In this document: one piece after another, positions 29,234-51,113 of the stretch
How the letters are laid out: each line of letters starts with the position of its first letter
Position numbering within the stretch: the first letter of the stretch is position 1
Source of the DNA: Tubiluchus corallicola
Taxonomy: Eukaryota > Animalia > Priapulida
Assembly (NCBI GenBank): GCA_030141605.1
Contig: JAQGDQ010002420.1
Coordinates: forward strand, 1-55,831
Direction: 5' to 3'
Length of the DNA: 55,831 bases
Position numbers and translations under genes: made by a program
Notes under the pieces: generated by a model
The model's database searches: none
Seen by the model: only the letters and a program-made list of their open reading frames with translations
What the model was told of the DNA's origin: nothing

Positions 29234-29279
29234 AATAAACCTCAAACGAATGTTGTACAACCAACAAAAATCGTCTCCC

Positions 29280-29308
29280 ATCCTACAACAAAACCAGCCC
29301 CATGTCAA
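29280..29308 (-). promoter_or_regulatory. sigma70 promoter of the aldolase operon
   Basis: Minus strand TTGACA, 17 nt, TAGGAT. Confidence 0.65.
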
Positions 29309-29502
29309 ACAATTATACAAAACACCCCATACGCTCCAAATTACTGCACAGCCCCTTATTATGGACTGCTTGAAGGCATCTCAAGTGCCAATTACAGATA
29401 CAGGACAATAATCTCTCACGGCAAACAAACACTCAAACTTGTGCAAATTTACGACTAGAAAGCACTCCTAACATAATGATGTTGTATTTTCTCTAAAAAG
29501 TA

Positions 29503-29531
29503 TTGACAAGTAACATAAGGTTTTGCATAAT
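29503..29531 (+). promoter_or_regulatory. sigma70 promoter of the first dctP paralog
   Basis: TTGACA, 17 nt, CATAAT. Confidence 0.7.
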
Positions 29532-29575
29532 GCCGCAGCAATGTAGAAATAGTTTGTCAAGGAGGAAATAGACAA

Positions 29576-30541
29576 ATGACTAGAAAAATTTTGATGTTAG
29601 CTGCCATATTGTTGGTCCCTACCATGGGTTATGGGAAAACATTGAATTGGAAGTTCGCCGATGTGTTGCCCGATGATCATCCGTCGGTGATTGCGAACAA
29701 CCACTTCGCAGATTTAGTCAGAAGCGAGACTGACGGTAGAATCAATATACAGGTTTTCAATAACTCCGTTCTAGGAAATGAAAAAACATCCATAGAGCAG
29801 GTGCAGTTTGGGAGCATTCAGTTTACACGTGTCAGCTTGGCACCCATGACACAGTTTTCCAAAAAACTTAGCGTCTTGATGTTGCCATACCTTTATGACG
29901 ATGAAAAACATATGTTCAGGGTATTGGACGGGCCGATAGGTGATGAGTTTCTGGAAAGTATGACAAATAAAAATATACTAGGTATTGCATGGATTGATGC
30001 AGGATCGAGAAACTTTTACAATTCTGTCAAGGAGATCAAGACACCGGAAGATCTAAGGGGGATGAAGATCAGGGTGCAACAATCTGACATCATGGTAGAT
30101 CTGGTGAAGGCTCTTGGGGCTTCACCCGTTCCGATGAGTCACGGGGAAGTTTACAGCGCTATGCAGACAGGTGTCATCGACGGCGCTGAAAACAACTGGT
30201 CGACCTATAGGACGACTAGCCATTACGAAGTTGCAAAGTACATCTCGACAGACGGTCACGCAAGAGTGCCCGAAATGATCATAATGAGCTACAAAGCGTA
30301 CAATTCTCTGAGTGACGCAGACAAAAAGATCATCAAAGAATCAGCTCGCAAGGCGGGGCTTCTTCAGAGAGAATTGTGGCAAGAAGCACAAAAAGAGGCA
30401 GAAAAAATCGTCAGGGACAATGGAAACATAGTGACGATAATAGAAGACGTGGGACCTTTCCAAGAAAAGGTTGGACCACTCTACAAAAAATACGGAAAAG
30501 GGAATGAAGAACTCTTAAAGAGAATATTGGAAACGGAATAA
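29576..30541 (+). CDS. dctP: TRAP substrate-binding protein, sugar-acid type (paralog 1)
   Basis: Signal peptide; DLRGMKIRVQ, EVYSAMQTGVIDGAENN, HYEVAKY. Confidence 0.93.
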   Translation: MTRKILMLAAILLVPTMGYGKTLNWKFADVLPDDHPSVIANNHFADLVRSETDGRINIQVFNNSVLGNEKTSIEQVQFGSIQFTRVSLAPMTQFSKKLSVLMLPYLYDDEKHMFRVLDGPIGDEFLESMTNKNILGIAWIDAGSRNFYNSVKEIKTPEDLRGMKIRVQQSDIMVDLVKALGASPVPMSHGEVYSAMQTGVIDGAENNWSTYRTTSHYEVAKYISTDGHARVPEMIIMSYKAYNSLSDADKKIIKESARKAGLLQRELWQEAQKEAEKIVRDNGNIVTIIEDVGPFQEKVGPLYKKYGKGNEELLKRILETE

Positions 30542-30551
30542 GCACCAAATC

Positions 30552-30603
30552 GAGGGGTACCCCCATTTTGCACAAAACTGAGGGGTGCCCCCATTTTCCA
30601 AAA
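30552..30603. repeat. Imperfect tandem repeat, 28-nt period, with palindromic core
   Basis: GAGGGGTACCCCCATTTTGCACAAAA and GAGGGGTGCCCCCATTTTCCAAAA. Confidence 0.75.
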
Positions 30604-30731
30604 GATCACGAAGAAAAAGAAAACGCAGCATTTTGCGTTCCCATCTCAGAACAGTCAGTCCTGACCCTACACCAGTCTTGGCAAGTCCTTTGAAGATTGC
30701 GGCGCTTATCTCTAAGCAGCTTCGGGTGCGG

Positions 30732-31478
30732 TTATTCCAAGCCTACCGGAGGCATGCATATTTTAGAAACTATTGACTCCTCAAGCATATTCTCTCTAGC
30801 CCCTCTTAGGATAGATGAGGACAATATCTCCTTGATGTTGGCTATCGCTATGCGGTTGCTTCTGCGGACGTTATGAGTAAGATTTTCCAGATACTGGTCA
30901 AGTTCTGAATCGCTGCCCACATAATTTACCAATCCGATATTCAGGGCAGTCCCAGCATCAATCATGCTGCCGCTAAACATCATCTCCATGGCTTTTGGAT
31001 ATCCGATCCTTGCAGGGAGCCTTCTCAGCCCCCCCCAGTTTGGAACCAGACCCAGGCCAACCCCACACATGCCAAACCTCGCCTTATCATTTGATACGAT
31101 AAAGTCGCAAGCAAGCGCCAACTCCAAACCTCCACCCAAGGTTAAGCCCCTTGTAACTGCCACTATCGGAATTGAGAGTTTTGCAAATTTGTTGAACACT
31201 CTATGCCCTTTAAAGACCCAATCGTCTACAATATCGCTGTAACCGTCTTTGCTCCCCTCCTCTGTCCCGCCAAGACCAGCATCCACCAAAAAATATTTTT
31301 CAGAACTACTACAGACAATAAGTAGCCTAATTTTATCCGTTTCCACACTCTCAATCACGCCTTCCGTGATCCCTAAGACATTTAAGTCAAGAAGGCATTC
31401 ATCCCCAGTGCTCGGAGGGTTGAACGTAATGTAACCAACTTCATTTTCGATTCGATAGTCAACAGTAGTAGTGCCCAT
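30732..31478 (-). CDS. Enoyl-CoA hydratase/isomerase (crotonase) family protein, divergent
   Basis: LGGGLELALACD, GL.PNWGG..RL..IG, A...GLVN; lacks FcaGaD and the PE glutamate. Confidence 0.8.
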   Translation of the reverse strand: MGTTTVDYRIENEVGYITFNPPSTGDECLLDLNVLGITEGVIESVETDKIRLLIVCSSSEKYFLVDAGLGGTEEGSKDGYSDIVDDWVFKGHRVFNKFAKLSIPIVAVTRGLTLGGGLELALACDFIVSNDKARFGMCGVGLGLVPNWGGLRRLPARIGYPKAMEMMFSGSMIDAGTALNIGLVNYVGSDSELDQYLENLTHNVRRSNRIAIANIKEILSSSILRGARENMLEESIVSKICMPPVGLE

Positions 31479-31610
31479 ATAGATACAACCTCACAATAGT
31501 ACTTATGAAGTATTGTATAGGAAACAATGGATATTTTTCAACAGCAACTTTGCATAAACTAGCACAACCTCTGCTTTAAAAAACCTCGTTTTGTTTATAT
31601 GCGGAACTTG

Positions 31611-31639
31611 TTGACAACTACTGGCAACGTGTGTACAAT
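31611..31639 (+). promoter_or_regulatory. sigma70 promoter of dctP2-dctQ-dctM
   Basis: TTGACA, 17 nt, TACAAT. Confidence 0.75.
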
Positions 31640-31677
31640 CGACTGCAACTTTGGAACCTATAAGGGGGTATTTTGTA

Positions 31678-32646
31678 ATGACATTAAAGAAAATATTTTT
31701 AGTGATGACGGTGTTGCTGCTTTCTTCTGCGGCATATAGCAAAACATTGAATTGGAAACTTGCAGAGGTGCATCCTGATGGATACCCTACGGTGGTAGCT
31801 GTCCAGCACTTTGCTGAAGTGGTTAAGGATAAAACCGATGGCAGGATCAATATACAGGTTTACAACAACTCTGTCCTTGGGGATGAAAAAGCGATCATAG
31901 AACAGGTACAGTTTGGCGGCATACAGCTTGCACGAGTTAGCTTGTCACCTATGACGCAGTTTTCCAGTAAGCTGAACGTACTCATGCTGCCTTACCTCTA
32001 TGACGACACAGACCATATGTTCAGGGTACTAGACAGCCCCATTGGGGACGAATTTTTAGAGAGCATGACTCGCAAAAACCTGCTCGGTCTGTCTTGGTTT
32101 GACGCAGGTTCGAGAAACTTTTACAACACGTCCAGAGAGATAAAAACCCCTGAAGATATGAAAGGTCTAAAGATCAGAGTGCAGCCATCTGACATTATGA
32201 TAGACCTTGTGAGGGCTCTCGGTGCTTCGCCCACGCCTATGGGATATAGCGAAGTTTATAGCGCCCTGCAAACCGGAGTCATTGATGGAGCCGAAAACAA
32301 CTGGTCAAGCTATCAGACTACAAGCCATTACGAGGTTGCAAAATATTTCACGACGGATGGCCACACAAGGGTCCCTGAAATGATCATAATTAACTACAAG
32401 GCCTATCAGTCTGTATCTGCCGAAGATCAAAAGGTATTGAAAGAGGCAGCTTATGAAGCGGCACTGTTGGAGAGGGAATTGTGGCAAAAAGCGGAAAGTG
32501 ATGCAGAAGCTATAGTGCGTGAAAGTGGGAGCATAATTACCGTGATAGAAGATGTTGAACCTTTCCAAGAAAAGGTTAAGCCCCTCTATGAAAAGTATGG
32601 TAAGGGGAATGAAAAGCTGCTGGAAAGAATCTTAGCGGTAGAATAG
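31678..32646 (+). CDS. dctP: TRAP substrate-binding protein, sugar-acid type (paralog 2)
   Basis: Colinear with, and visibly similar to, 29576-30541; RBS AAGGGGG before ATG 31678. Confidence 0.93.
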   Translation: MTLKKIFLVMTVLLLSSAAYSKTLNWKLAEVHPDGYPTVVAVQHFAEVVKDKTDGRINIQVYNNSVLGDEKAIIEQVQFGGIQLARVSLSPMTQFSSKLNVLMLPYLYDDTDHMFRVLDSPIGDEFLESMTRKNLLGLSWFDAGSRNFYNTSREIKTPEDMKGLKIRVQPSDIMIDLVRALGASPTPMGYSEVYSALQTGVIDGAENNWSSYQTTSHYEVAKYFTTDGHTRVPEMIIINYKAYQSVSAEDQKVLKEAAYEAALLERELWQKAESDAEAIVRESGSIITVIEDVEPFQEKVKPLYEKYGKGNEKLLERILAVE

Positions 32647-32678
32647 GTTTGATCTCTTCTTTGAGCTAATTTAGGGTA

Positions 32679-32714
32679 AAGGTGCAAGGTGGCGTGTTTG
32701 TTGCTTTGCACCTT
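32679..32714 (+). other. Intercistronic hairpin after dctP2 (likely mRNA stabiliser or partial terminator)
   Basis: AAGGTGCAAGG / CTTTGCACCTT. Confidence 0.55.
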
Positions 32715-32768
32715 GTGCTCTGTATCATCAAAAAAAACTATTCAAAATAATTTTATCGGAGTTGCGTC

Positions 32769-33245
32769 ATGCGTTTAGTGATAGTGGACAAGGTTGCGAC
32801 CTTCACAGAGAGGATCTTTGTGGGGCTTGCGGTGGTTATGCTTGTCGTAATGATTATTACCATCACGTTTCAGGTATTCACGAGATACACACTTAACTTT
32901 ACTCCAAAATGGTCTGAACAGCTGTCCCTTCTCTGTATGGTGTGGTTTAGCTTCATCGGGATGGCCTTGGGTGTGAAAAAGGGTTCGCATATATGCTTGG
33001 AGTTTTTTGTATCCAAGCTCCCTGAAAAGGGGAGGAAGATAACTGCATTTGCCGTGCATCTCCTTACATGCGGTTTTGGAGTGTTTTTGTTGGTCTATGG
33101 GAGCATCCTCGCAAATTATGCCAAGTACTCGACAATCCCAGGCTTGCATGTGCCGACATCTTTTCTTTATGCCATGGTACCCGTGTCAGGATTTATGATG
33201 ATCCTCTACACAATACCGAAAATACTTGGGGGGGAAACAAAATGA
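32769..33245 (+). CDS. dctQ: TRAP small permease DctQ
   Basis: QVFTRY..NFTPKWSEQ..L..VW; four TM segments. Confidence 0.92.
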   Translation: MRLVIVDKVATFTERIFVGLAVVMLVVMIITITFQVFTRYTLNFTPKWSEQLSLLCMVWFSFIGMALGVKKGSHICLEFFVSKLPEKGRKITAFAVHLLTCGFGVFLLVYGSILANYAKYSTIPGLHVPTSFLYAMVPVSGFMMILYTIPKILGGETK

Positions 33246-34531
33246 TCCAAGGGGACGCAATCGCAATACTATTTACATCATTTTTCTTAATGCTGATATT
33301 CAGAGTTCCTATAGCGTTCGTTTTGGGTATATCTTCTCTGATCACGGCCATTTACGTGGGTATTCCACCCGTAGCTATTGCCCAACAGATGGTGCAAGGC
33401 GTGAATTCATTTTCCCTCATGGCAATACCATTCTTTATCGTAGCCGGTGAGATAATGAGTACGGGGGGCATCAGTACAAAGCTTATCAACTTTGCAAACG
33501 TCGTCGTAGGGAGGCTACGGGGAGGACTGGCTCAAGTAAACATTCTTGCAAGTATGTTTTTTGGAGGCATTTCCGGTTCATCCGTCGCCGATACCTCATC
33601 CATAGGCTCCGTCATGATACCCATGATGGAAGAGAACGGATATGACAAAGATTTTGCTGTAAACGTCACCATTACATCCTCCACCCAAGGGATAATAATT
33701 CCACCTAGCCACAACGTTATTATCTATTCTGTATCAGCCGGAGGGTTGTCTGTGGGAGATCTTTTCTTGGGAGGAATAATTCCAGGGATCTTGCTGGGAC
33801 TGTCGATAATGGTGTTGTCATATGTGATCGCCCTGAAAAGAAACTATCCTAGAGGGGAGAGAGTCCCGTTGAAGGAAGCTATCCGGGTTATCATAGACAG
33901 CTTTTTAGGACTTCTCACAGCCGTCATCATCGTTTTGGGTGTAATTTTGGGTGTAATGACTGCTACAGAATCTGCGGCAATTGCCACAGTTTACGCTTTT
34001 ATCATCACATTTTTTGTATACAAAACTGTAAACCTCAAATCAGCAATAGGTATATTAAAAAGGTCACTTATTACCTTGTCTATAGTTATGTCAATTATTG
34101 CAGCCTCATCTGCTTTTGGCTACATGTTGTCAATCCTGAGAGTCCCCGCACTGATAACGGAAACCATGCTACAAATATCGGACAATAGGATAGTCATACT
34201 CTTGATAGTCAACCTGACGCTCTTGATGCTCGGCATGATTATGGATATGGCACCACTTATATTGATCACAACCCCGATACTTTTGCCAGTGGTAACCGCT
34301 GTCGGTATGGACCCTATACAGTTTGGAATAGTTATGATGCTAAACCTCGGTATAGGACTGCTCACACCTCCTGTGGGCACAACTCTATTTGTGGGGTGCT
34401 CGATAGGAAAGTTGCCTATGGAAAAAGCTGCAAGGGGCTTAATCCCATTTTATTTGGACTTGGTTGTGTACCTAATGGCGATAACCTTTGTACCGGCATT
34501 TACATTGTACCTGCCTGGTGCACTGAAATGA
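33242..34531 (+). CDS. dctM: TRAP large permease DctM
   Basis: AIPFFIVAG, GISGSSVAD, IIPPSHN, TPPVG; ATGA overlap with dctQ. Confidence 0.95.
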   Translation: MIQGDAIAILFTSFFLMLIFRVPIAFVLGISSLITAIYVGIPPVAIAQQMVQGVNSFSLMAIPFFIVAGEIMSTGGISTKLINFANVVVGRLRGGLAQVNILASMFFGGISGSSVADTSSIGSVMIPMMEENGYDKDFAVNVTITSSTQGIIIPPSHNVIIYSVSAGGLSVGDLFLGGIIPGILLGLSIMVLSYVIALKRNYPRGERVPLKEAIRVIIDSFLGLLTAVIIVLGVILGVMTATESAAIATVYAFIITFFVYKTVNLKSAIGILKRSLITLSIVMSIIAASSAFGYMLSILRVPALITETMLQISDNRIVILLIVNLTLLMLGMIMDMAPLILITTPILLPVVTAVGMDPIQFGIVMMLNLGIGLLTPPVGTTLFVGCSIGKLPMEKAARGLIPFYLDLVVYLMAITFVPAFTLYLPGALK

Positions 34532-36664: not shown

Positions 36665-37458
36665 ATGAGCTTTTTGATGCGTTGTGGTTGGGTATTGTTC
36701 AGGGGGCTACGGAGTTTCTGCCGATCTCCAGCTCAGGACACTTGGTTATTGCTAAGAGTTTGATGAATAGTTTTCCATCACAGGACATATTTTTTGACAT
36801 ACTTCTCCATTTGTCGACCTCTCTCAGCATAATTATATTTTTCAGGCGTAGAATTTATAAGCTTTTCATAGGTTTTTTGGGAATATTTACAAGCAAATAC
36901 TCCCTGGAATACTATGAGCAGAAAAGGTTTTTGTACGCACTTGTAATGGCATCTATTCCCACAGCCATTATAGGCTTCTTGATAAGCAAACATTCCTACA
37001 GCCTGTTTACGTACCCCACATTGACGGGCTATGCGCTGATAATAACATCAATACTTCTTGCATCTTCAGACAGGTTGAGAGGAGAAAACCGAGTTACGGC
37101 AAGCTCAGGTTTTTTGATAGGAATAGCCCAAGGGATAGCTGTAATCCCCGGTTTATCCCGCTCTGGTCTCACTATCTCAGCGGGCCTTTTCCTTGGGATA
37201 TCTCGAAAGGAGATTGCAGAGTTTTCATTCCTGGCGTCATTGCCGGCAATATTTGGTGCAGCACTGTACGAATACACAAAAACTGACATAACACATTATC
37301 TGGATAACGCAATCGTATACGCAGCAGGCATGTGTGCCGCATTTATCACCGGCTTGCTTGCGATAGGCGTATTTATAATAGTATTAAAACGGGCAAAGAT
37401 GATCTATTTTGCGACATATTGCCTAATATTGGGGATAATATCTGTCATATGGTTATGA
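36665..37458 (+). CDS. uppP: Undecaprenyl-diphosphate phosphatase (BacA); likely start ATG 36665 with a homopolymer indel
   Basis: GIVQGATEFLPISSSGHL; PGLSRSG.TI. Confidence 0.93.
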
Positions 37459-40099
37459 ATAAAAGAAATAAATTACTTATCGATACCCTTATAGTCATGG
37501 TCTCCTTTGTGATACTGTTTTGTCTTACCTCTTACGTGTCCTACTCCCCTTCTGACATCTCATTTAGCCACGTGGTGATCCCCCAGGACACCCAGGATAC
37601 AAAAAATCTGTTCGGCAATACAGGGGCTTATTTTGCCGATATTTCCGGTGTATATTTGGGTTTTTCGGCCATATTCATACCACTTCTCATGATCAGAACG
37701 TGCTATATGCTCGTCTTGATAAGGAAAGGCACATTCAAAAATATACCCTTACTCATATTCCAATTGCTCTTAATATTTGTAATAGCTGCGTTGATGTCCG
37801 GAATGCTCGGCATATATGGAGGGAGTGATTATGTATTTAAGAGCAAACCGCTAGGCGGCATCTTTGGGGTACTGGCAAATGAATATCTGTCAGCTATTTT
37901 GGGTAAATTTGGCGGCAGTGTGACGCTATTCTTCCTTCTAGTAATCATCAGTGCGCTCTTCTTTTCACGATCGGTCTTTGAATGGATAGGTGCTTTTGTA
38001 AGGCCCTTGGACTTTATGGCATCCAAGCTTGCGTTCTGCATAGCGTTAGCGGGTAAGGCTGAGGAGCTTTTGAAGGCTTTAATCGACCACGCACATGCAG
38101 TATATCTGGAAACTAAGAATAAAATTGAAAATAGGAATACCGTTAAAGCAGTCGAGGATGAAAATAATGAAACTGTCGAGAATGAGGAAAAGCCTGTAAT
38201 CGTACGAAGCTATGAACCTCAGGAAACCGTCTCCACGGTAATGCACAATGAAGGGGAAGAGATGTCAGATACTGAACCCCAAGAGGTTCAAACAGAAGCC
38301 GCGATGGATTACGGCACCACCCTAACTTATGACAGTGATGAAACGGAGACACCTGTGAGAGAAGAAACGGAGCATATCGAAGGTTATCGTTATAGCCCCA
38401 CATCTCCCAGGGAGTACGTTAGGGACGCAAATGCCGATTACTACAAAGATATCCAGGATGATGAAGAGGACGAAAAGGATGAAGTAAGCGACATTGACAT
38501 CGATTCTCAACTCAAGAAGCCGTTTGTGGATGAAGAGCCTTATTCTTCGTTCCTCGAGGATATTGATGAAGGGGATGTAGCTCGCTCAGAAGAGGATACA
38601 ACCCCTTCCGAAGCGTCAATTTATGACACCAGCGTCAGTTATGAAGAGGAGATTAAAGCTATTCAGATGAGGCACGAAGATGCTCATGCACCGTCACCTT
38701 ATGCCACTTACCGTCTGAATTTAGATCTTCTTGATGAAATTCCCCAAGTCAGCATAAGCGAAACGGAAGAATCTTTGAGAGATAAGGCAGATCTGCTCGT
38801 ACAAAAGCTCAGTGACTTCGGCGTGAATGGTAAGGTACGTGAGATACAACCGGGGCCTGTAGTCACACTATTTGAGTTTGAGCCGGCTCCAGGAATAAAG
38901 ATCAACAAAATCGCAAACCTTGGCGATGATTTGGCATTAGGCATGAGCGCTTTGAGTGTGCGCATCATAGCTCCAATTCCGGGCAAAGCCGCTGTGGGTG
39001 TGGAGATTCCGAATAAAGACCGTCTGCCGGTATATCTGCGAGACCTTCTTGAGTCAAACGATTATGAAAGAAATGAACACCCTCTGACGATAGCTCTGGG
39101 CAAAACTGCCTCAGGCTCGCCATATATCACGGATTTGGCAAAGATGCCCCACCTACTCGTGGCAGGAACTACCGGAAGCGGCAAGTCAGTATCTGTGAAC
39201 ACTATTATATGTTCTGTCCTCTATAAGTCATCTCCTGATCTGGTCAAGTTTGTCATGATCGACCCAAAAATGGTGGAATTGAGCGTATACGAGGGCATCC
39301 CCCATCTATTGGCGCCGGTAGTAACGGATCCTCGCCAAGCTGCGGGAGTTTTAAAGAATGTTGTCAAGGAGATGGAGAGAAGATACTCTCTTCTGGCGTC
39401 CCAAAAGATTCGAAGCATCACATCTTACAACGATATAGCAGTTTCAGACGACGCATTGGAGCCCATGCCGTATTTGGTCGTTATAGTGGATGAATTTGCC
39501 GATTTGATGTTGGTAGCTGGAAAAGAGGTGGAACAATCAGTAATACGCATTGCTCAGATGGCTAGAGCCGTAGGCATCCATCTGGTGCTTGCAACCCAAC
39601 GCCCTTCTGTAAACGTAATAACCGGAATTATCAAGGCCAATATGCCATCAAGATTATCATTCAAGGTATCACAAAGATAGACTCAAGGACGGTAATCGAC
39701 CAAAATGGAGCTGAGATGCTCCTAGGCAAAGGCGACAGTCTATTCATACCCCCAGGTTCTAGTGAGGCTATCCGTATTCACGGTTGCTTCGTCAGCGAAC
39801 AGGAGGTCAACAGAATAGTAAGTACTCTAAAAACCTATGGAGAGCCGAAGTACGATATGGCACTTGTGGAGAGCTTTGATGATGCGTCCGACGTTGATGA
39901 TGACGAAATGGATGAAAAATATTACGAAGCCCTCAGTCTGGTGAAGGACAAAGGGCAAGCCAGCATATCCATGATACAGCGCCATCTGAGGATAGGATAT
40001 AATAGAGCGGCTAGAATAGTCGAAATAATGGAAAAACAGGGAGTGGTTGCACCAAGTGACGGCACTTCAAAGCCCAGAGAAGTGCTCGACAGAGACTGA
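37455..40099 (+). CDS. ftsK: DNA translocase FtsK (frameshift near 39675)
   Basis: N-terminal TM region, acidic linker, GPVVT, AGTTGSGKS, VDEFADL, ATQRPS; SQ(K)IDSR junction lacks one A; gamma domain QRHLRIGYNRAAR. Confidence 0.95.
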
Positions 40100-41196: not shown

Positions 41197-42479
41197 TTAT
41201 CCAAGCTTGTTCGGCAAATACAAAGATATCTGAGGCACAAATGTCACGAGTAACAGCACTAGAAACATAACGAACACCATCGGCAATATCTCTCTGATTA
41301 CGGATGACAGCTTTGTTCCGGATATGCCCGACGTCACAAACAGCAACATGCCGAATGGCGGGGTGGAAAGCCCTATCATCATATTCAAGGTCAGAACCAC
41401 TCCGAAATGCACAAGGTCAATATCCAAAGCAATAGCTGCTGGCAACACTATGGGTATAAATATCAGCTGCAATACAGACGTGTCTAAGAGCATCCCCAGT
41501 ATGATGAAGATGATATTGACTATGATAAAGAATAGTATTTTGCTATTGATATTTTCCAGCATAAAGTCTGAAATAAGGTAAGGTATTCTTTCATTTGCCA
41601 CTATATATGAAATTACGGCGGCAGCACCTATGATTATAGCCACAGTTCCCGTCATACGCACTGTTTCTACCATGATGCTGATCAAGGACTTAAGGTCAAG
41701 TACCCGGTAAACGATGTATGAAATGCCCAAGGCATAAAGAGCAGCTACAGCTCCAGCCTCTGTAGGAGTAAACTTACCACTGTACAAACCCGTAAGCAAT
41801 ATTACCGGCGTGAGTAATGCGGGGAATGACTTGAAGGTAAACAACAAAAATTCGGTAAAGGCATACCTTTTGCCATAAGGGTATTTTCTCCGCTGAGAAA
41901 CTATATAGACATACGTCATGAGGAAGGCGCATAACAAAATTCCCGGTACCATACCGGCAATGAAGAGTGCGCCTACGGATGTCCCCGATAACATGGCATA
42001 TATAACCATAGGTATGCTCGGTGGAAATATGGGGCCAATGGTGGCAGAAGCTGATGTGACAGCACAAGCAAAAGCCTCGTCGTATCCATCACTCTTCATC
42101 TGCTCTATCTCCATTTTTCCTAAACCTGAAGCATCCGCAATGGCAGAACCGGTCATACCGGAAAATATGAGAGATGCCAAAACATTTACATGGGCAGTAC
42201 CCCCACGCCATCTACCCACCAGAGATGTGGCAAAATCAAATATAATGTGTGTTATTCTCCCATTATTCATAACTTGTGCGGTAAATATAAACAACGGTAT
42301 AGCGAGCAAAACATACTGGGCGTGCAAAGTGGTGATCAGTTTAGATGGAACTATCGATATATCGGATCCAGAAGCTATAAAGTAGACAGTGGCTGACGCC
42401 ACCATTCCCAGAACAAGGGAGCTCTAATTACAAAAAGGAGCAGCAAAACCGCAACAAACAGCAAAAAGGCGAAACTCAT
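41197..42479 (-). CDS. dctM: TRAP large permease DctM (frameshift near 42415)
   Basis: GMTGSAIAD, GPIFPPS, TPPFG; hydrophobic N-terminus from ATG 42479 overlapping the dctQ stop. Confidence 0.92.
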
Positions 42480-42970
42480 TCTCTATCCCCTCCTCTCATA
42501 TTCTTCAGCTCAACACTTCTCCTAAACAGGTCTCGCGCGGAAAAGAACAGGATAAAGACGATATATGCAGTCACAATGCTAAACACAAGCGGGTAAGGTA
42601 TCCTCAGCACTGTGGATTTTCTCTTGTCAATGGACATCAAGAATTCAACACTGTAAGGGAGCAACACCAAAAACAGGAGCAAAATCAGACCATTGCTCAA
42701 GATGCACAATCGAAGTTGGTGTCTGCGGCTCAACGCATCGTAAAATGATGTAAAGGATACATCTTTGCCTTGAGAACGGGTCATAATAGCCCCGATAAAT
42801 ACAACCCAAATGTACGCAAAAGTCGTAATTTCGTACGTCCAGGGAACGTTAATGGAGGGGAAGAAGTGGCGCGCCACCACCTGAAGCACAAATACCAAAA
42901 ACAACAATGTAAACACAGCCACAGGAAGCCACTTTCCGCCTATAATTCCTAAAATGCGCCACATCTTCAC
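42476..42970 (-). CDS. dctQ: TRAP small permease DctQ
   Basis: QVVARHFF...WTYEI..AYIW; four TM segments. Confidence 0.88.
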   Translation of the reverse strand: MKMWRILGIIGGKWLPVAVFTLLFLVFVLQVVARHFFPSINVPWTYEITTFAYIWVVFIGAIMTRSQGKDVSFTSFYDALSRRHQLRLCILSNGLILLLFLVLLPYSVEFLMSIDKRKSTVLRIPYPLVFSIVTAYIVFILFFSARDLFRRSVELKNMRGGDRE

Positions 42971-43011
42971 ATCAACCCCCCTATTTTAACAAAAAGCAGG
43001 ACAAACTTACA

Positions 43012-44016
43012 TTATCTGCCTACAGCTTGAACTTGTTCGTACAGTTTCTTATCCCAGGACGATACGATAGCCTCGTTTTGTAAGTACACGCTTTGGACAT
43101 GCTTGCTAAAAGCATCCACGTCCGGTTTATAAACTGACAAGCCTTCATCTTCAAAGAAGCGTATAAGCTCAGCCTCTCCATCCTTTGTAACACCGTCTGC
43201 AACCTCTCTACCCTTTTGGGCGGCAATCAATACCCACTCCTGTTGTTCAGCAGTCAAGCTGCTCCACCTCTCCTCATTCATAACTGGCCAAACAGAATCC
43301 ACCAAATGGTTTGTCAGAGTAATGCTCTTTGTCACTTCATAAAATTTTGCATTTTTAATGGTGGGCAATGGGTTATCCTGACCATCAATGATCCCCTGCT
43401 GAAGGGCAACATACAACTCATTGAATGGTATAGGTATGGCTCTTGCCCCCAGAGCATTCCCCAAGAACAGCCACGCTTCAGAATCCGGCATGCGCAAGTT
43501 TATTCCACTTAGATCTTCCGGTGTTTTAATGGCCTTGTCGACGCGCAAATTAATCTGCCTTGCTCCAAGGTACCACGCTCCAAGGGGTCTTGTGCCGGTC
43601 TCTTCCGCAATATCTTGGAAGATAGCTTTGCCTATTTCACCATTGAAGGTACTTGTCATGTGCTCGTAATCACGAAACATATAGCCTGCAGCAAACATGG
43701 ACACGTAAGGAACATAATCCGCATACCACTGAGCTGAAAGATCCACAACCATATCTATATTGCCCCGCTGCAAAGCAGGAAACATGTCACTCTGACCGAA
43801 AAGGGAGCCTGAATCGTGTATCTCAACCTTCATGGAGCCATCACTCAACCTTTCTAGCTCTTCCCCAAAAGCTCTCAAACCCTTATTGTGAGGATCTTGC
43901 GCGACAGAAGCGGTCGCAGCTTTGAGGACAATCACATCCCTATCACTATCCTTTTTGCAAGCCCCAACTAAGGAAGATGCAAATACTATCGCCAACAACA
44001 GATAAATTCTTTTCAT
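43012..44016 (-). CDS. dctP: TRAP substrate-binding lipoprotein, SiaP-like
   Basis: Lipobox-like LVGAC; YLGARQ, DLSGINLRMP, ELYVALQQGIIDGQDNPL, KFYEV. Confidence 0.9.
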   Translation of the reverse strand: MKRIYLLLAIVFASSLVGACKKDSDRDVIVLKAATASVAQDPHNKGLRAFGEELERLSDGSMKVEIHDSGSLFGQSDMFPALQRGNIDMVVDLSAQWYADYVPYVSMFAAGYMFRDYEHMTSTFNGEIGKAIFQDIAEETGTRPLGAWYLGARQINLRVDKAIKTPEDLSGINLRMPDSEAWLFLGNALGARAIPIPFNELYVALQQGIIDGQDNPLPTIKNAKFYEVTKSITLTNHLVDSVWPVMNEERWSSLTAEQQEWVLIAAQKGREVADGVTKDGEAELIRFFEDEGLSVYKPDVDAFSKHVQSVYLQNEAIVSSWDKKLYEQVQAVGR

Positions 44017-44110
44017 ATCATCCCTCCAGCGGTTAAAACCACCATATTTTCATCACTCAAAGATACAGCCACAAGCTTGAGTTAAGGACCTGCCCAAACT
44101 GGATACATCC

Positions 44111-44869
44111 TCAACCGCCGCCGCTCCACAAAGCAGACATCCTATCTGCAAACTCTATCACATCGGATGCAATCGCGGGAGTTTTTTCCTCATCAAATCT
44201 CTGATCTAAAAAACTCACGCTAATAGCTCCAAAAACACGCCCTTTCTCATTGCGCACAGGAGCTGCAACACATCTCAGATAGTTTTCATGCTCCATGTTA
44301 TCGACGGCATAACCCTGCTCGTAAATATTATTCAGCTCCCGTTTCAGAAGATGCGGCTCAACTATAGTCATCTCAGTATAACGGGGCAAGCCATTTTGAA
44401 TGATCTCATCAATCTTTGCATCATCCTGAAAAGCGAGAACAGCCTTACCAAGTCCAGTGCAATGCAACGGTGCGCGCACCCCTATCACAGAGTGAGACCT
44501 CAAAGCCCTTGCAGCCTCTACACAAGATATGTAGAGCACCTTGTCATGGCTCAATATTCCCATATGTGCTGTTTCATTAAACCGCTCCTGAAGAAGTCTG
44601 AGAATTTCCGTACTCTTGCCAACAGTATCAGAAAAATCTAGGATATCACCCTGAAAACCTAAAAACGCACAACCCAAGCAGTATTTTTTACTCTTTGGAT
44701 CTTTAAAAATAAAAAAATCGTTTTCAAGAGTCCTGATTATGGAGTAGGCAGTGCTCTTAGGGATCCTCAATCTGTTACATATGTCCAAAAAGGAGAGCCC
44801 ACCCTCATGCTGAAGAAGATATAACACACTCAATGCCTTGCTGACAGTATTATTCAAAGAATCCCCCAT
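44111..44869 (-). CDS. IclR-family transcriptional regulator
   Basis: HTH IPKSTAYSII; PLHCTGLGKA; GYAVDNMEH..RCVAAPV. Confidence 0.93.
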   Translation of the reverse strand: MGDSLNNTVSKALSVLYLLQHEGGLSFLDICNRLRIPKSTAYSIIRTLENDFFIFKDPKSKKYCLGCAFLGFQGDILDFSDTVGKSTEILRLLQERFNETAHMGILSHDKVLYISCVEAARALRSHSVIGVRAPLHCTGLGKAVLAFQDDAKIDEIIQNGLPRYTEMTIVEPHLLKRELNNIYEQGYAVDNMEHENYLRCVAAPVRNEKGRVFGAISVSFLDQRFDEEKTPAIASDVIEFADRMSALWSGGG

Positions 44870-44886
44870 CGCCAAATATGGATTTA

Positions 44887-45024
44887 GTTCATATATAAAA
44901 ACCGAAGCACACCACATGCTAACACATAATCACACAATATCAATAGAAAAAACTTTATTCAGCAAACAATAGATGGTACTATTGGCAGAAGGGTGCGAAT
45001 ATTTAGTTGTTCGTATATAGAAAC
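44887..45024. promoter_or_regulatory. Two candidate IclR operators
   Basis: GTTCATATATAAAAAC (44887-44902) and GTTCGTATATAGAAAC (45009-45024), each just upstream of a divergent start codon. Confidence 0.65.
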
Positions 45025-45035
45025 TACAGAGGTTA

Positions 45036-45947
45036 ATGATGAAAACTTTATATGGTGTTACGGCAGCGTTGACGACGCTATTTGATGAAAGAGGTGATAT
45101 TGATGAAAGCGCCATGCTGAATCAAGCGAGACATATTCTTTCAAGGGGAGCTCACTGTCTATTTCTGTGTGGCACTACTGGGGAGATGCACCATCTCACT
45201 ATTTTTGAGAGGAAGAGAATTGTAGAGATTATAGTTGAAGAAGCTCGCAAAATAGACAGCAACATCCCGATTTATGTACATTCAGGCTCCATGCTTTACA
45301 GTGACACGGTGGCTCTGAGCAGACATGCGCTCGAAGTGGGAGCCGACGGCATCAGCATCGTGACCCCGTCATATTTTCATGTATCTGACTCTGATATGAT
45401 ACGCTACTATACGGACATCGCAAATGATTTGCCGTCCGATTTTCCGATTTATCTATACAGCATACCCCAACTTGCGGGGAATAGCATCACCCCCCAAGTA
45501 GCTGAGACGCTCGCTGAGAATAATCCAAACATTGTGGGAATCAAGTATAGTTATCCGGATTTTGCTTATCTTCAACAATATAAGAACATCAAAGATGGCA
45601 ATTTTTCCGTTCTCATGGGAGCAGACACACTAATCACAGCCGTTTTGAGCATGGGGGCATCCGGGGTTGTATCCGGCTTGTCTTGCGCTTATCCAGACAC
45701 ATTTGTAAAAGCATGATGCGTTTACTAAGGGCGACTTAAAGAGTTCTCTCCACCACAAAAGGCGGGATTTGAACTAGGCAAAATACTGGAAGACGGTCGC
45801 AGGGCAGCCATATTCAAGGCTGCTCAGAACTACCTAGGAGTAAAGAATAGAGGATTTAGATCACCGCTCAGACCCATCTCAGCGGAAGAAGAGGAAAGAC
45901 TCATTCTCAACCTTCAGCAGTGGGAAGAAGAGTATAATGTTCAGTAA
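45036..45947 (+). CDS. NanA/DapA-family pyruvate-dependent aldolase (indels near 45713 and 45755)
   Basis: CGTTGE, YLYSIPQ, IVGIKYS; shifted C-terminus FKAA..YLG...FRSPLRP ending at TAA 45945-45947. Confidence 0.85.
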
Positions 45948-45977
45948 TTTCATCGTTTGAAACAAACACCACTCCCC

Positions 45978-46021
45978 TTTTTATAGGGCGCCTAGAAATA
46001 TCTAGCCGCCCTATTTTTTTT
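45978..46021. terminator. Intrinsic terminator between convergent genes
   Basis: ATAGGGCG-c-CTAGA aata TCTAG-c-CGCCCTAT followed by T-run. Confidence 0.85.
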
Positions 46022-46054
46022 ATCTACTATTCTGTCTATGTTGGGTGTTTTGCT

Positions 46055-47689
46055 TTAACCTGCCAAGTACACCTTCATATTTTGGGTCAACGCCTGGGAC
46101 ACAAACGCTTCCACAACGGCATCTATTTTATCTTCATCCACATATGCCACGGTAATATGATTGCTCTGGTGCCCTGCCATTAATTGATCGCGGCTAACGC
46201 CATCCAATATGACATTCATCAAGGGCCATTCCTTTGTAGTTGCGTTCAAACGGCGGTTAACCTCATCTTCAGGCAGTTCATAAGCCTTGCCAGTTCCCAC
46301 ATGCATGTGCACTTCCAATCCTTCATAATGGGCTCTTGCCCAAATAAATGATCCCGCCTTACACTGTCCACCTATGGTGGAGCCTCCATTCGGGAAGTAC
46401 ATAGCGGGCTGACGATAACCCTTTGCCCCTGAAATGCCACCCTTGATATGCTCAAACGGGACATTGCCGGAGATCAGAAAATCCCAATAGAACTGTCCGT
46501 CATACTCGCTTCCCCAACGGATGTCGTGCAGAGTGGTCTCAGAGGGCAATGACAGAGTATCGAGCAAGCGGAAAAGCATAGTTTGAGGAATAGCCGTCCC
46601 CATATCAACTTCGTTAGCGCAAGGTATAGGCTTGCCGGGGCGAATAATCTCACCATTCTCGTCCTTAATAGGGTAACGCTCACTACTTCCTATGGCGCCT
46701 TCTGCAAAATCCGAGGCAGGGCAAACATCTTTCAAGCCCTGCTGATATTGGACACCCACAGTGCTCAAGCCAAAGCGCTGAGTAAATCTCGCCATGGCAA
46801 TCATCATAGCGCACTGTTCTAACACCTGCTCTTTGGTCAGTTCCGTCGAGTGGTCAGTGCCAAATTTAAAATCCATACCCCTATCGGTGTAAAAACGCAA
46901 ACACTCTTCCCTCTCCTCTTGTTTCACCAAAGACATTTCATAAACAAGAGCTGACTGGGATAAAGCTTCTAAAGGCATGCCGATATCATACAGCGATTTT
47001 ATGGGGAACAGTCCATTTACCATTCCCATGCAAAACATGTCGAACAAACCGATAATCTCTTTATCCCTTAGAATTTTTTTGCCAAGCTTCACTCCCAACT
47101 TTCCAGCATCCGTGGCATACACCTCTTTTACCTCTTTGAGGTATGACACGTCATGATTGATAAAACCATCAGTGAGCCACTTTTCCAGCGAATTATAGAA
47201 AAAATCGTCGTCAAAGTTTTCAGACCACAATCTGGAGTAGCTTCTATCCATGGAGGTTAAAGTACCCGCCAGATTCAACATACCCACAAGACCAGGCCAC
47301 GTACCGTCAAAATTTGTCAAGAGTAGAATAGGCCCCCTGTGGGTCATCAATGATGGAGCCAGATGATGAGAATATTGCCACGCCGTTAGCAGTACTATAA
47401 GTGGCGCCTCAGGATCTACATGGCTCAATATGCCCACACCCTCAGATTGACTAGAGATAAAGCCGTGCCCTACAGAATCCTTCACATTGTGCACCCGTAC
47501 AGCTTTGTAGTCAAACCTATCTTCAAGAACTTTGTGCAGTTTCTGCTCAAACTTTTGCTGGACAGCCCAACAGTTTTTATTTGCGCTCTCCCTCAAGTCT
47601 CCATTTGTGATCAGGAATACCTCTTTTTCGGATGACAATGTCAAGTAGTTTATATCCGAAACCTGTGAAATAGCTTGCTGAATGTTCAT
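46055..47689 (-). CDS. L-fucose/D-arabinose isomerase-like protein
   Basis: NGDLRESAN, WQYSHH, WPGLVG.LNL, CANEVD, SNH motifs of FucI-like proteins; next to a pentulose kinase. Confidence 0.68.
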   Translation of the reverse strand: MNIQQAISQVSDINYLTLSSEKEVFLITNGDLRESANKNCWAVQQKFEQKLHKVLEDRFDYKAVRVHNVKDSVGHGFISSQSEGVGILSHVDPEAPLIVLLTAWQYSHHLAPSLMTHRGPILLLTNFDGTWPGLVGMLNLAGTLTSMDRSYSRLWSENFDDDFFYNSLEKWLTDGFINHDVSYLKEVKEVYATDAGKLGVKLGKKILRDKEIIGLFDMFCMGMVNGLFPIKSLYDIGMPLEALSQSALVYEMSLVKQEEREECLRFYTDRGMDFKFGTDHSTELTKEQVLEQCAMMIAMARFTQRFGLSTVGVQYQQGLKDVCPASDFAEGAIGSSERYPIKDENGEIIRPGKPIPCANEVDMGTAIPQTMLFRLLDTLSLPSETTLHDIRWGSEYDGQFYWDFLISGNVPFEHIKGGISGAKGYRQPAMYFPNGGSTIGGQCKAGSFIWARAHYEGLEVHMHVGTGKAYELPEDEVNRRLNATTKEWPLMNVILDGVSRDQLMAGHQSNHITVAYVDEDKIDAVVEAFVSQALTQNMKVYLAG

Positions 47690-47712
47690 AACGATACTTA
47701 CCTCCCGCAATA

Positions 47713-49299
47713 TTATTTATTCATAATGCTCTTATAAGCCAGTTGATGCTTATACATTTCGTGAAATACTTCATATTTCTTTTGATGAAAATCGGCATTC
47801 TCTTTACGAGGAGTAATCTTGTCGCCGATGGATGACATCCTCTCGATAGCGTCAAACAGTGTTGAGTACACCCCTGCCGCAGTTGCAGCGAGCATTGCGC
47901 TGCCCAAAAGGACGGCCTCACTCTCAAGGCTCAGATAGAGCGGCAAACCGACGGCATCAGCATGTTCTCTCAGCCATATGGGGTTTTTTGTCCCCCCTCC
48001 GCACATATGGATCTTTTCTATGGCAAAGCCGGACTTATTCATTTCATCGATTATGTGACGAGTACCGTATGCAACAGACTGGATAGCAGCCAAATAGTGA
48101 ATTGATAAAGAATCTTTTCCCTTATCCATACTTAAGCCCGACATCATGCCTCTCAAGTGAGGGTTCGCCCTTGGCGAGCGGTTGCCATGAAAATAACCGA
48201 GCACATGAACCTGTTCGGTCAAATATGGATTGCTCTCCTCCAACAATAGAACATGCTCGTTCAGCACTTCATATATCGTCTTGCCCTCACCTGTCGCTTC
48301 TTTAACGAGCGTGGGATAATATGGATGGCTCTCTATGACCTGCTCCACCAGAGCTCCAGCGGTAGTTTGCCCCCCTTCAGCCAGCCAATAGCCGGGCAGC
48401 ATCGCCCCGTAATAGGGGCCCCACACACCGGGTACAAATAATTTTTCAAGGTTGACCGCCATATGGCACGCAGAGGTGCCTCCGATAATTCCAAGGGTTT
48501 TCTCGGGCTCTTTCCCTATAATTCCTATTCCACCTGCATGGGCATCTATGATGCCCACCGCGACAACCACATTCTCCGTCAGAGAAAAATGCTCCGCAGC
48601 TTCAGCACTCAAAGTGCCTGCCGCGTCACCCAAAGGGGCAATATTCTTTCCTATTTTATCTTCATTTAACAGATCTTCAAGGTCGAGCTGCTTAAAGAGA
48701 TCTTCCTGCCAACCTCCCTCACGCTCGAGATATGTCCATTTGCAAGTTGTGGTGCATATGCTCCGAACATCCACACCGCTCGACCTATAGACAAGAAAGT
48801 CCGCCAAATCAAAGAAACGATGTACCCTTCTGTAGGAATCTGGCTTGTTATTTTTCAACCAGGATATCTTGGGCAACTCCATCTCGACACTGACCTGCCC
48901 ACCCACATAATCCAGCACCTTGTGGCCTGTGCTATTAATAATTTCAGCCTCTTCAAAAGCCCTGTGATCCATCCACAGAACCACATTCCAACGATCATTA
49001 TCATCCAAAGACACACTCACCGGAGCATCACTATAATCTAGGGCAACCAAAGAGCAAGTTGCATCAAAGCCGATACCGACAACATCCTCAGCACAAATGC
49101 CAGCCTCCTTGACGACAGAAGAAACCACTAATCCAGTCTTCTGCCAAATATCTTCAGAAGACTGTTCATAAAATAGAGGTCTCGCATTATTGATGAGAAT
49201 CGGCTCAACCTTTAATCCATACCGAACACCATCCAAATCATAAAGCCCAGCGCGAACGCTGGATGTCCCCACATCAACACCTACAACATATCGCTTCAT
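47713..49299 (-). CDS. FGGY pentulose kinase, D-ribulokinase type
   Basis: GVDVGTSS, GIGFDATCSLV, WMDHRA, IDAHAG, GTSACH, VPGVWGPY, FHGNRSP. Confidence 0.9.
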   Translation of the reverse strand: MKRYVVGVDVGTSSVRAGLYDLDGVRYGLKVEPILINNARPLFYEQSSEDIWQKTGLVVSSVVKEAGICAEDVVGIGFDATCSLVALDYSDAPVSVSLDDNDRWNVVLWMDHRAFEEAEIINSTGHKVLDYVGGQVSVEMELPKISWLKNNKPDSYRRVHRFFDLADFLVYRSSGVDVRSICTTTCKWTYLEREGGWQEDLFKQLDLEDLLNEDKIGKNIAPLGDAAGTLSAEAAEHFSLTENVVVAVGIIDAHAGGIGIIGKEPEKTLGIIGGTSACHMAVNLEKLFVPGVWGPYYGAMLPGYWLAEGGQTTAGALVEQVIESHPYYPTLVKEATGEGKTIYEVLNEHVLLLEESNPYLTEQVHVLGYFHGNRSPRANPHLRGMMSGLSMDKGKDSLSIHYLAAIQSVAYGTRHIIDEMNKSGFAIEKIHMCGGGTKNPIWLREHADAVGLPLYLSLESEAVLLGSAMLAATAAGVYSTLFDAIERMSSIGDKITPRKENADFHQKKYEVFHEMYKHQLAYKSIMNK

Positions 49300-49601
49300 C
49301 CACAACCCCCTTAAAGACACTCACCACTTAACTAATTAAGTAGACAATCCAAAGAGACTATTGTCAACAATTTTTCACATGTGGCAGAAAATTGCATAAT
49401 CGATCACCACTCGGCATTGACGCGCATATAATACGCAATCGCACAAAAACTGAAACTAAACTAAATATTTGCTGAAAACACAACGATAATCTGGACCAAC
49501 TTGACGCAAAATGAGGTGTATGAAGATATACATGAAGATGGCTCGTGCGAAGAAAAACTGCAAAACACAGCCCTTCTCACACAAGCCAGCCTAGTTCGAG
49601 A

Positions 49602-50012
49602 TTATTCATCACACATCATATATAAGCTCCTGTTAGAAGGACTATAGCTACCAACATAAACCTCATACCCATCAGTCGTACAACCTTCACGACTAGCTTG
49701 CAGATAATAAGTGCCAGAATATAAGCTAGTAAACATATAACGCCCAAGATCGTCTGTGATACCCTCCCTGATGACTTCACCACCAGACAAAAGTTCCACT
49801 TTCGCCCCCTCAATCAACCCAACATACGACCCTGGTGCAACAATTTGCATTACGTAACCAAAAAGAGCATAATTTCCACCATCTCCGCCATCAATAGGTG
49901 GAAGAGTGCCACCTCCGCCATCAACAACACCGCCATCACCAGACGAACCGCATGACACCAAACCAAAAATAAGCAGAACCGCAAAGACCTTCAAAATCCA
50001 GATCTTCTTCAT
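49602..50012 (-). CDS. Lipoprotein with Gly-rich linker and carboxypeptidase-regulatory-like beta domain (copy 1)
   Basis: GGAGG RBS; LVSC lipobox; GAKVEL..TDDLGRY.F..L..GTY.L.AS. Confidence 0.8.
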   Translation of the reverse strand: MKKIWILKVFAVLLIFGLVSCGSSGDGGVVDGGGGTLPPIDGGDGGNYALFGYVMQIVAPGSYVGLIEGAKVELLSGGEVIREGITDDLGRYMFTSLYSGTYYLQASREGCTTDGYEVYVGSYSPSNRSLYMMCDE

Positions 50013-50221
50013 GAAACAATGCCTCCACATGATTGACCGTAACAAACTGTTAAACGGCAGCATAGTTTTGCAGAATATAACAGCGACACCGATAGATAAT
50101 AAGTATTACTTACGCCCACCATGGACGGTATTTATAATAATCACCACCCAATTATAGCGCCGCTGCAAATAACAATGCACCAAAACACAGCCCTTCTCAC
50201 ACAAGCCAGCCTAGTTCGAGA

Positions 50222-50611
50222 TTATTGAATACACTCTAGAGGTAGAGGAAGGCCACTGAGACTTTGGACAACTGGAAATGCACTTTCATAAGTCGTACAA
50301 CCTTCCGCACTAACTCTCAGAGTATAAACGTCAGACTCTAGATTAGAGAGCATATAACTCCCATCACTTTCTGAGATAGACAAACTGACAACTTTATCAC
50401 CAGACAAAAGTTCCACTCTCGCACCAGAAATCGCCCCAATAAGATCACCTGTAACAGCATCAACTCCTGCTACCTTGCCAGAAATGGAATACCCACTTCC
50501 GCCACCACCAGGTGGAAGAGTACCACCTCCGCCATCACCAGACGAACCGCATGACACCAAACCAAAAATAAGCAGAACCGCAAAGACCTTCAAAATCCAA
50601 ACCTTCTTCAT
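50222..50611 (-). CDS. Lipoprotein with Gly-rich linker and carboxypeptidase-regulatory-like beta domain (copy 2)
   Basis: GGAGG RBS; LVSC lipobox; ISGKV..ISGARVEL..SDGSY.L..L...YTL.VS. Confidence 0.8.
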   Translation of the reverse strand: MKKVWILKVFAVLLIFGLVSCGSSGDGGGGTLPPGGGGSGYSISGKVAGVDAVTGDLIGAISGARVELLSGDKVVSLSISESDGSYMLSNLESDVYTLRVSAEGCTTYESAFPVVQSLSGLPLPLECIQ

Positions 50612-51113
50612 AAAACAATACCTCCATTTAATTGACCGTAACAAACTGTTAAACAGCAGCATAATTTTGCAAAATATAGCAGCAATACATAAGAATATAA
50701 CAGTGATACCAATAGGCGATAAGCATTCTATAGCCCACCATAGAAGACACTTACAATAATCACAACTCCGCGATGGTGCCGTTGCAAACAACAATACACC
50801 ATACGCATACCCCCACAATTAAATTACTGTAACAGTACGATGTTATTATGCATATTTTTACACACATGTCTATTCCAATCTGTATGCATTTTGTACACAC
50901 AATACTGTCATCGATTTGCAAGCCTTAGAAAGCGATATTTTTGTAATCAACGGGTCACACTTAAGGTGATGTGTAATTTACAACACTAGGTTGTGTATAA
51001 AACAAGCAAGGGGTTGTGCAAAAGTTGTTAAAAGAAACTTACCACAGCAGATATTGCGGTTAAGAATTGCCTTAGCAAAGGCAGTTATGAAAGTGCGGTT
51101 ACCAAAAACACTC

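Follow-up and report, generated by a model that had tools for sequence, protein, structure and literature searches.

A candidate locus for scavenging of the bacterial and plant sugar Kdo in a contig assembled from Tubiluchus corallicola

Nearly all Gram-negative bacteria, and plants as well, synthesise Kdo (3-deoxy-D-manno-octulosonate), a sugar of eight carbons that occurs in bacterial outer membranes and in plant pectin. Kdo aldolase cleaves it to pyruvate and D-arabinose, enzymes of the FucI family convert D-arabinose to D-ribulose, and D-ribulokinase phosphorylates the latter to ribulose-5-phosphate; among common natural 3-deoxy-ulosonates, only Kdo is known to be cleaved to a pentose that isomerises to D-ribulose. 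Here we analyse a stretch of 55,831 nucleotides assembled from the priapulid Tubiluchus corallicola (contig JAQGDQ010002420.1, assembly GCA_030141605.1; hereafter the window), in which a tripartite ATP-independent periplasmic (TRAP) transporter, an IclR-family regulator, a class I pyruvate aldolase, a FucI-like isomerase and an FGGY kinase are encoded between positions 41197 and 49299. All genes that an annotation made from the sequence alone (the original prediction) had named are found there, on the strands given in Table 1. From its gene context, the locus probably encodes a Kdo scavenging route, in which Kdo would enter through the TRAP system and be split by the aldolase into pyruvate and D-arabinose, after which the FucI-fold enzyme would turn D-arabinose into D-ribulose and the kinase would make D-ribulose-5-phosphate for the pentose phosphate pathway. 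What is observed are the gene families and folds, the linkage of the genes, their co-occurrence in other genomes and a pair of predicted operators at iclR and the aldolase gene; from context we infer the substrate of the aldolase and transporter, as well as the joint action of the two halves of the locus (regulator, transporter and aldolase; kinase and isomerase).

The closest described systems are the nan/sia clusters (SiaPQM, NanA, sialidase), which likewise combine a SiaP-group TRAP transporter with a class I pyruvate aldolase that yields pyruvate and an aldose, and sialidase-fold genes also neighbour loci related to that of the window. In contrast, the window locus encodes a pentose isomerase and a pentulose kinase in place of NanK, NanE and NagA, its binding protein DctP is 26–29% identical to SiaP structures, and its aldolase scores far under the NanA cut-off. 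As originally predicted, no nanE, nanK or nagA family is found among the 45 of 59 open reading frames (ORFs) of at least 150 amino acids (aa) in the window that were scanned; this and the further statements on absence and regulation in the source genome refer to the 55.8-kb window. The kinase–isomerase half resembles D-arabinose use via FucI and a D-ribulokinase (DarK, RbtK, RblK), where isomerisation by a FucI-fold enzyme is followed by a TIGR01315 kinase that produces D-ribulose-5-phosphate, whereas the isomerase of the window belongs to a separate family with 14–17% identity to FucI and no match to the N1 and N2 Pfam domains. The C. rodentium Rbl locus was considered as a known equivalent and rejected, its isomerase being KpsF-like and unrelated in the available excerpt of the source. 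The first enzymatic step predicted for the window route corresponds to Kdo aldolase (EC 4.1.2.23), an activity purified in 1966 and cited from work of 1966–1990 in the accessible part of PMC12199768. The claim that the genetics of Kdo catabolism are poorly described agrees with the full-text literature searched, in which no gene assignment was found for Kdo catabolism and no function for the isomerase family; subscription literature lay mostly outside this search, and an earlier proposal is possible. In the excerpts available, PMC5788505 presents Kdo as a matter of biosynthesis only, and PMC9535733 suggests merely that an azido-Kdo may be catabolised.

Phosphorylation of D-ribulose appears to be the best-grounded step of the route, the kinase being well grounded by family. 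Consistent with its earlier description as a D-ribulokinase-type enzyme, it scores above the cut-off of TIGR01315 (Table 1) and below those of the L-ribulokinase models, finds its best Protein Data Bank (PDB) match in 3GG4/3L0Q (E 1e-157) and carries a TCSLV motif at residue 81. D-ribulokinases, one of them the DarK of D-arabinose use, have been collected by means of TIGR01315 (bioRxiv 10.1101/2025.02.06.636802), and a tree of FGGY kinases includes RbtK (PMC3245297), as stated in the accessible portions of these two sources.

The isomerase had been labelled FucI-like, a label that is weak by sequence and holds only by fold. Of the three FucI Pfam domains, only the C-terminal one is detected, below threshold (Fucose_iso_C, 26 bits, cut-off 29.3), and there is no NCBIfam match and no PDB match by sequence. 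By contrast, a structural model of the protein (predicted local distance difference test score 89.6) superimposes on 1FUI with a VIA Z score of 34.3 (root-mean-square deviation (rmsd) 2.6, 329 residues aligned). L-fucose/D-arabinose isomerases reach Z 33–34 in this comparison, L-arabinose isomerases 26–29.5 and unrelated folds at most 9.3, and Foldseek is concordant (E 1e-18), placing the model in the FucI/AraA fold. Counting from the residue that follows Met, Glu329, Asp361 and His510 are the same in all 35 aligned rows and fall on the Glu, Asp and His motifs of the canonical FucI encoded in genome G384, within an alignment that by itself is non-significant. The metal ligands of E. coli FucI are Glu337, Asp361 and His528. 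Because of its FucI-like modelled fold and these conserved residues, the protein is predicted to be a metal-dependent aldose-ketose isomerase, and the adjoining kinase makes it quite probable that its substrate is D-arabinose. The family is large, with 7,964 of 8,000 candidates scored in one search, and its best matches, from Endozoicomonas and other marine gammaproteobacteria, are 73% identical to the window protein. Relatives are named ‘signal transduction protein’ (RefSeq) or ‘hypothetical’, and the purely automatic names of the protein atlas are ‘fucose isomerase’ or ‘hypothetical’.

Related isomerase genes recur beside the same functions in other genomes. We collected 87 isomerase loci from the best 80 of 571 metagenome matches and 7 of 22 plasmid records (68 loci after dereplication at 90% identity), many of them on short contigs and with kinship uncorrected in all counts. 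The loci fall into a close clade (63–75% identity) and a distant clade (41–47%), with a TIGR01315-like kinase nearby in 18 of 31 and 4 of 37 cases, respectively. Within 8 kb, an aldolase of the DapA, HpcH or RraA type is encoded in 15/22 loci that have this kinase, compared with 5/46 that lack it (Fisher p 3e-6, kinship uncorrected), and in 9/11 compared with 4/21 where 2.5 kb of flank is available on both sides (Fisher p 0.002, likewise uncorrected). At least five aldolase lineages occupy the slot beside the isomerase, among them a Klebsiella/Proteus DapA clade as well as HpcH and RraA in rhizobia, and therefore selection seems to act on function. The DctP family of the window accompanies the isomerase in 5/68 loci (L017, L047, L050, L051 and L065). 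Genes with a sialidase (BNR) fold are likewise present in 5/68, and a BNR neighbour, for which a role as Kdo hydrolase would be speculative, has only weak PDB matches to streptococcal sialidases (E 5e-5). Thus, the isomerase–kinase pair recurs with pyruvate aldolases across phyla, contrary to the possibility, raised in the original prediction, that it never co-occurs with them. Whole-genome sampling was confined to Spirochaetota, where the isomerase is present in 5/251 genomes, always from the distant clade; two of these five also hold a close DctP, unlinked to it.

Among E. coli genomes, 82 of 5,426 carry the isomerase, and in the two inspected it lies in an island with the kinase, a major facilitator superfamily (MFS) transporter, an enolase-family enzyme, a short-chain dehydrogenase/reductase (SDR), DapA, GlcG and LacI. 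The combination of kinase, isomerase and DapA with an enolase-superfamily enzyme, SDR and GlcG is seen at L103:8112-17380 (E. coli NZ_CP033762.1) and in L023-L058, and the same SDR family also accompanies rhizobial loci (46–48% identity). As a speculation, the enolase-family enzyme and SDR would suit an entry route in which a hydroxylated analogue of Kdo, for instance Ko, is first reduced and then dehydrated.

The TRAP system had been described as SiaP-like. Membership of this group stands, with the refinement that the closest solved relative of DctP by sequence is 4PF6 (E 1.5e-64), followed by SiaP (E 1.7e-44). The same order is observed by structure, where both Foldseek and VIA return 4PF6 as the best match (Z 37.4, rmsd 2.3, 301 residues aligned, 39% identity) and SiaP proteins as the next-best. 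The protein in 4PF6, RD1_0742 of Roseobacter denitrificans, is 38–39% identical to the window DctP and belongs to a separate subclade; it was reportedly co-purified with Kdo. The accessible part of Rosa 2018 (PMC5812351) cites Vetting et al. 2015 and makes no mention of Kdo. In a quick tree (no bootstrap), DctP falls among Firmicute and spirochaete homologues, its own placement not being starred. A close DctP is encoded in 6/401 spirochaete genomes, with a DapA gene in the cluster in five of them, the contig of the sixth ending early. In the spirochaete genome G384, the cluster of a DctP 51% identical to that of the window also encodes an aldolase and FadR and ends in a canonical FucI with all three domains. 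The presence of FucI in place of the isomerase beside this DctP clade is the strongest sign that the transporter clade feeds D-arabinose. A scan of genome contigs with DctP as the lone query returned one locus.

On roseobacter-type plasmids of Qingshengfaniella and Alloyangia, a GH78 rhamnosidase gene lies beside DctP and DapA. We note that GH78, GntR, DapA and the TRAP family of the window form one unit at L009:4579-11801 and L010:4445-11787, which is a candidate for uptake of the rhamnose–Kdo side chain of the pectin rhamnogalacturonan II (RG-II). In Bacteroides, chain C of RG-II is taken apart by a Kdo hydrolase acting together with GH78, according to the available excerpt of PMC13501991.

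The aldolase had been assigned to the NanA/DapA type. The family is correct, since the DapA/NanA superfamily features GxTGE, catalytic Tyr and Schiff-base Lys are all present, in the motifs GTTGE at 46, YLYSIP at 139 (Tyr141) and GIKYS at 168 (Lys170). However, NanA-level similarity is not found: the 226-aa piece that is readable in the assembly, which ends at a stop at 45714 that the earlier description had overlooked, scores 101 bits against a cut-off of 382 for TIGR00683 and 108 against 281 for PRK04147, a gap that the missing quarter could not close. The same truncated piece also falls below the cut-offs of the KDG (2-keto-3-deoxygluconate) aldolase model and of the DapA model TIGR00674 (131 bits, cut-off 206), and its gene context is catabolic. 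The best PDB match is YagE (E 2e-31), a KDGal (2-keto-3-deoxygalactonate) aldolase, and the nearest relatives are Firmicute proteins of approximately 50% identity. NanA-family lyases split Kdo in vitro, as reported in the accessible part of PMC13220900.

The regulator contains the IclR domains expected from its original assignment and is 40–43% identical to the IclR proteins encoded next to the same TRAP family in L001, L108 and L109. A 16-bp near-palindrome is present in two copies in the window, before iclR and before the aldolase gene, and the same form (GTTCG-N6-CGAAC) lies just 5′ of iclR in L108 and L109. A different, LacI-type palindrome is found in 6/119 loci, all of them close-clade isomerase loci. 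With the sequence TGCTAAC-N-CGA-N-KYAGCA, it lies just 5′ of the kinase or isomerase gene (L002:7323, L003:8267, L013:3101, L019:3639, L046:1787 and L048:4008) and, as a putative operator of LacI, could serve to trace the regulon through complete genomes. Scans of the window for promoters and terminators were at chance level (18 vs 16.2 and 9 vs 8.0, respectively).

The Kdo pathway proposed in the original prediction is upheld in part: the gene set recurs and a canonical FucI lies beside the DctP clade in G384, whereas the aldolase lineage and the DctP family also occur in triose-kinase and quinate clusters, and the two halves have no shared operator. Several observations weigh against it. The locus is a mosaic that looks assembled from two sources, since by its relatives the IclR-controlled TRAP–aldolase half is of Firmicute/spirochaete type and the kinase–isomerase half marine gammaproteobacterial. 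The isomerase has low identity to FucI, L-arabinose isomerases match it too, and its profile alignment with FucI is not significant (probability 0.3). The DctP family is not Kdo-specific: a close 4PF6 orthologue, a Marinovum protein (510 bits), lies in a quinate/shikimate cluster (L011:7107-16121, with shikimate dehydrogenase, dehydroquinase and QuiC-like genes around it), as do 4PF6 relatives in five further plasmid loci. No isomerase match is found in the four spirochaete genomes (incomplete) with the closest DctP matches. No aldolase that adjoins the isomerase elsewhere is more than 34% identical to that of the window; relatives of the latter, with 41–43% identity, in 5/401 spirochaete genomes adjoin tripartite tricarboxylate transporters (TTT), in one case also DhaKL, and none of these five has the isomerase, FucI or a pentulose kinase within approximately 9 kb. 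The aldolase lineage offers nothing in favour of Kdo and some support for a six-carbon substrate. Among the kinase–isomerase loci, 7/22 show no aldolase; one of these is the closest, L013 (71% identity), where an ATP-binding cassette (ABC) sugar transporter is encoded and the downstream DNA extends for only 1.8 kb. Finally, the predicted IclR operator is not found 5′ of the kinase gene, nor is the LacI-type palindrome found in the window, such that no common operator joins the two halves. Separate regulation of the two is probable, in keeping with a mosaic origin, and the view that they are two modules thereby stays alive.

Under that alternative, the IclR–TRAP–aldolase genes would serve a short 2-keto-3-deoxy acid of the KDG/KDGal type, cleaved to a triose, and the kinase–isomerase pair would serve free D-arabinose or D-ribulose, the two being unrelated. 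Convergent transcription of the halves, a caveat of the original prediction that stands, is consistent with this, as are their differing nearest relatives, the lack of a common operator, the aldolase relatives beside DhaKL and the match to YagE; moreover, the window is dense in sugar clusters, making chance adjacency possible. We nevertheless consider two unrelated modules unlikely, because these four functions come together again and again in other lineages, with differing aldolases and transporters, a canonical FucI takes part in G384, the locus contains no KDG kinase, triose kinase or dehydratase, and DctP belongs to the SiaP/4PF6 group, apart from the hexuronate binders.

Alternatively, the halves may form one pathway for another ulosonate, such as a Kdo epimer cleaved to D-ribose, which is also isomerised to D-ribulose, 3-deoxy-D-arabino-heptulosonate cleaved to D-erythrose, or the sialic acids KDN and Neu5Ac. 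In L006 and L050 the set is accompanied by ribokinase-like genes; by structure, SiaP proteins rank next after 4PF6 as matches of DctP; and an enolase-family dehydratase and an SDR are additional members of the E. coli island, which implies that upstream substrates vary. However, KDN and Neu5Ac yield mannose and N-acetylmannosamine, which a pentulose kinase does not handle and which would require hexose/ROK kinases and NanE, none of them encoded in the locus. No abundant natural source of Kdo epimers is known to us, and D-arabinose is indicated by the FucI that lies beside the DctP clade; this alternative is rather improbable.

It is very improbable that the TRAP system has no relation to the enzymes and takes up quinate or shikimate. 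The 4PF6 orthologue and its relatives do lie in aroE/aroQ/quiC clusters, and because of the near orthologue the natural ligand of 4PF6 itself may be quinate instead of Kdo. However, the quinate-context proteins form a nested, starred subclade (SH-like approximate likelihood ratio test (SH-aLRT) 97, in the same quick tree) that excludes the window DctP and is surrounded by aldolase-linked members. The clade of the window DctP sits with aldolases, no aroE, aroQ or quiC lies beside its transporter, and neither shikimate dehydrogenase nor dehydroquinase was matched in the 45 ORFs scanned.

As assembled, the aldolase ORF meets a stop at 45714-45716 after 226 aa, the sequence containing two in-frame stops, and the C-terminal part is readable in other frames down to a stop at 45947. 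A contig from short-read run X2 (depth 3.5) has two additional bases after position 45712, and a loose end at 45756 points to a third; the corrected protein would have approximately 304 aa, homologues mostly having 290–305. Because short-read contigs carry the missing bases, we read the break as an assembly indel and the aldolase as very likely intact. A true pseudogene, and with it a route dead in the organism, is scarcely credible: the two stops, the low depth of the correcting contig and the lack of an X1 contig across the break speak for it, and the frame-predicted bases in X2 contigs and the same indel pattern in ftsK and other genes speak against it.

The window is an indel-prone assembly. 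At 39672, within ftsK, both X1 and X2 have an extra base, and more indels occur at the second DapA gene and other sites. The dctM gene is frameshifted close to its 5′ end, with an N-terminal segment in another frame that begins at 42479, and no short-read contig bridges that site. The genes mutS (16564-19115) and ftsK (37332-40099) are each split in two, and short-read contigs show a gap across the mutS region; pseudogene calls in the window are unsafe because of this gap and the additional ftsK base. The gene order of the locus is also present in X1 contigs (spanning 45832-49546 and 43875-45673). The three short-read runs represent one sample, probably the source of the assembly, and therefore correct the sequence but are not independent biology. 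At 42247 and 42893, both X1 and X2 have long AT-rich loose ends, probably short matches from other organisms. No island is visible in the GC content of the window.

Table 1. Features of the candidate Kdo locus, with positions in the window
Feature	Positions	Strand	Support or remark
dctM, TRAP large permease	41197..42479	-	Pfam DctM 359 bits; TIGR00786 above cut-off; longest open frame 41197-42405
dctQ, TRAP small permease	42476..42970	-	Pfam DctQ 79 bits
dctP, TRAP binding protein, 4PF6/SiaP-like group	43012..44016	-	PDB, Foldseek, VIA; predicted ulosonate binder
IclR-family regulator	44111..44917	-	Pfam IclR_C and HTH_IclR; likely start 44869
Predicted IclR operator, copy 1 (GTTCA-N6-AAAAC)	44887..44902		
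Predicted IclR operator, copy 2, 5′ of aldolase	45009..45024		
DapA/NanA-family class I pyruvate aldolase	45036..45947	+	Pfam DHDPS (PF00701) 161 bits
14-bp hairpin followed by T-run, between convergent genes	45983..46014	+	
FucI-fold aldose-ketose isomerase, predicted D-arabinose isomerase	46055..47689	-	Fold model and motif residues
FGGY pentulose kinase, D-ribulokinase type	47713..49299	-	TIGR01315 595 bits, cut-off 409

Other clusters are present in the window. The region 6274-15187 encodes a GH31 glycosidase, DeoR, a 3-hydroxyacid dehydrogenase, an aldose epimerase, a TauE exporter, a transaldolase and a second protein with a FucI C-terminal domain, adjoins a TRAP system and a GH116 gene, and resembles the sulfoquinovose transaldolase (sulfo-TAL) pathway. 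A second acid-sugar cluster at 24337-34531 comprises a DapA-family gene frameshifted by assembly indels, a 2-hydroxyacid dehydrogenase, an XylB-like FGGY kinase, a class II aldolase, a HAD phosphatase and a TRAP system with two dctP genes, which are 70% identical and have an enoyl-CoA hydratase gene between them. An apparent duplication lies at 49602-50818, where two lipoprotein-like genes stand in tandem, both with a carboxypeptidase-regulatory-like domain and with N-termini that are almost identical.

Returning to the Kdo reading, we lean slightly towards a widespread Kdo catabolic pathway that has been reassembled repeatedly out of exchangeable aldolases (several DapA lineages, HpcH and RraA) and importers (TRAP, TTT, MFS and ABC). 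Its logic mirrors that of sialic-acid catabolism, so that the pathway would extend an established design by a new branch and involve no new chemistry. The locus offers four testable proteins, and culturable carriers include Endozoicomonas, Deinococcus deserti, Sinorhizobium meliloti and Pseudooceanicola algae. If the reading is true, the orphan Kdo aldolase activity would gain genes, and a Kdo-preferring aldolase would be useful for sugar synthesis. D-arabinose isomerases would gain a new class, a large family of at least 7,964 members that is now mislabelled ‘signal transduction protein’, and the Kdo of lipopolysaccharide and RG-II would be a recycled carbon source for bacteria from marine symbionts to gut enterobacteria.

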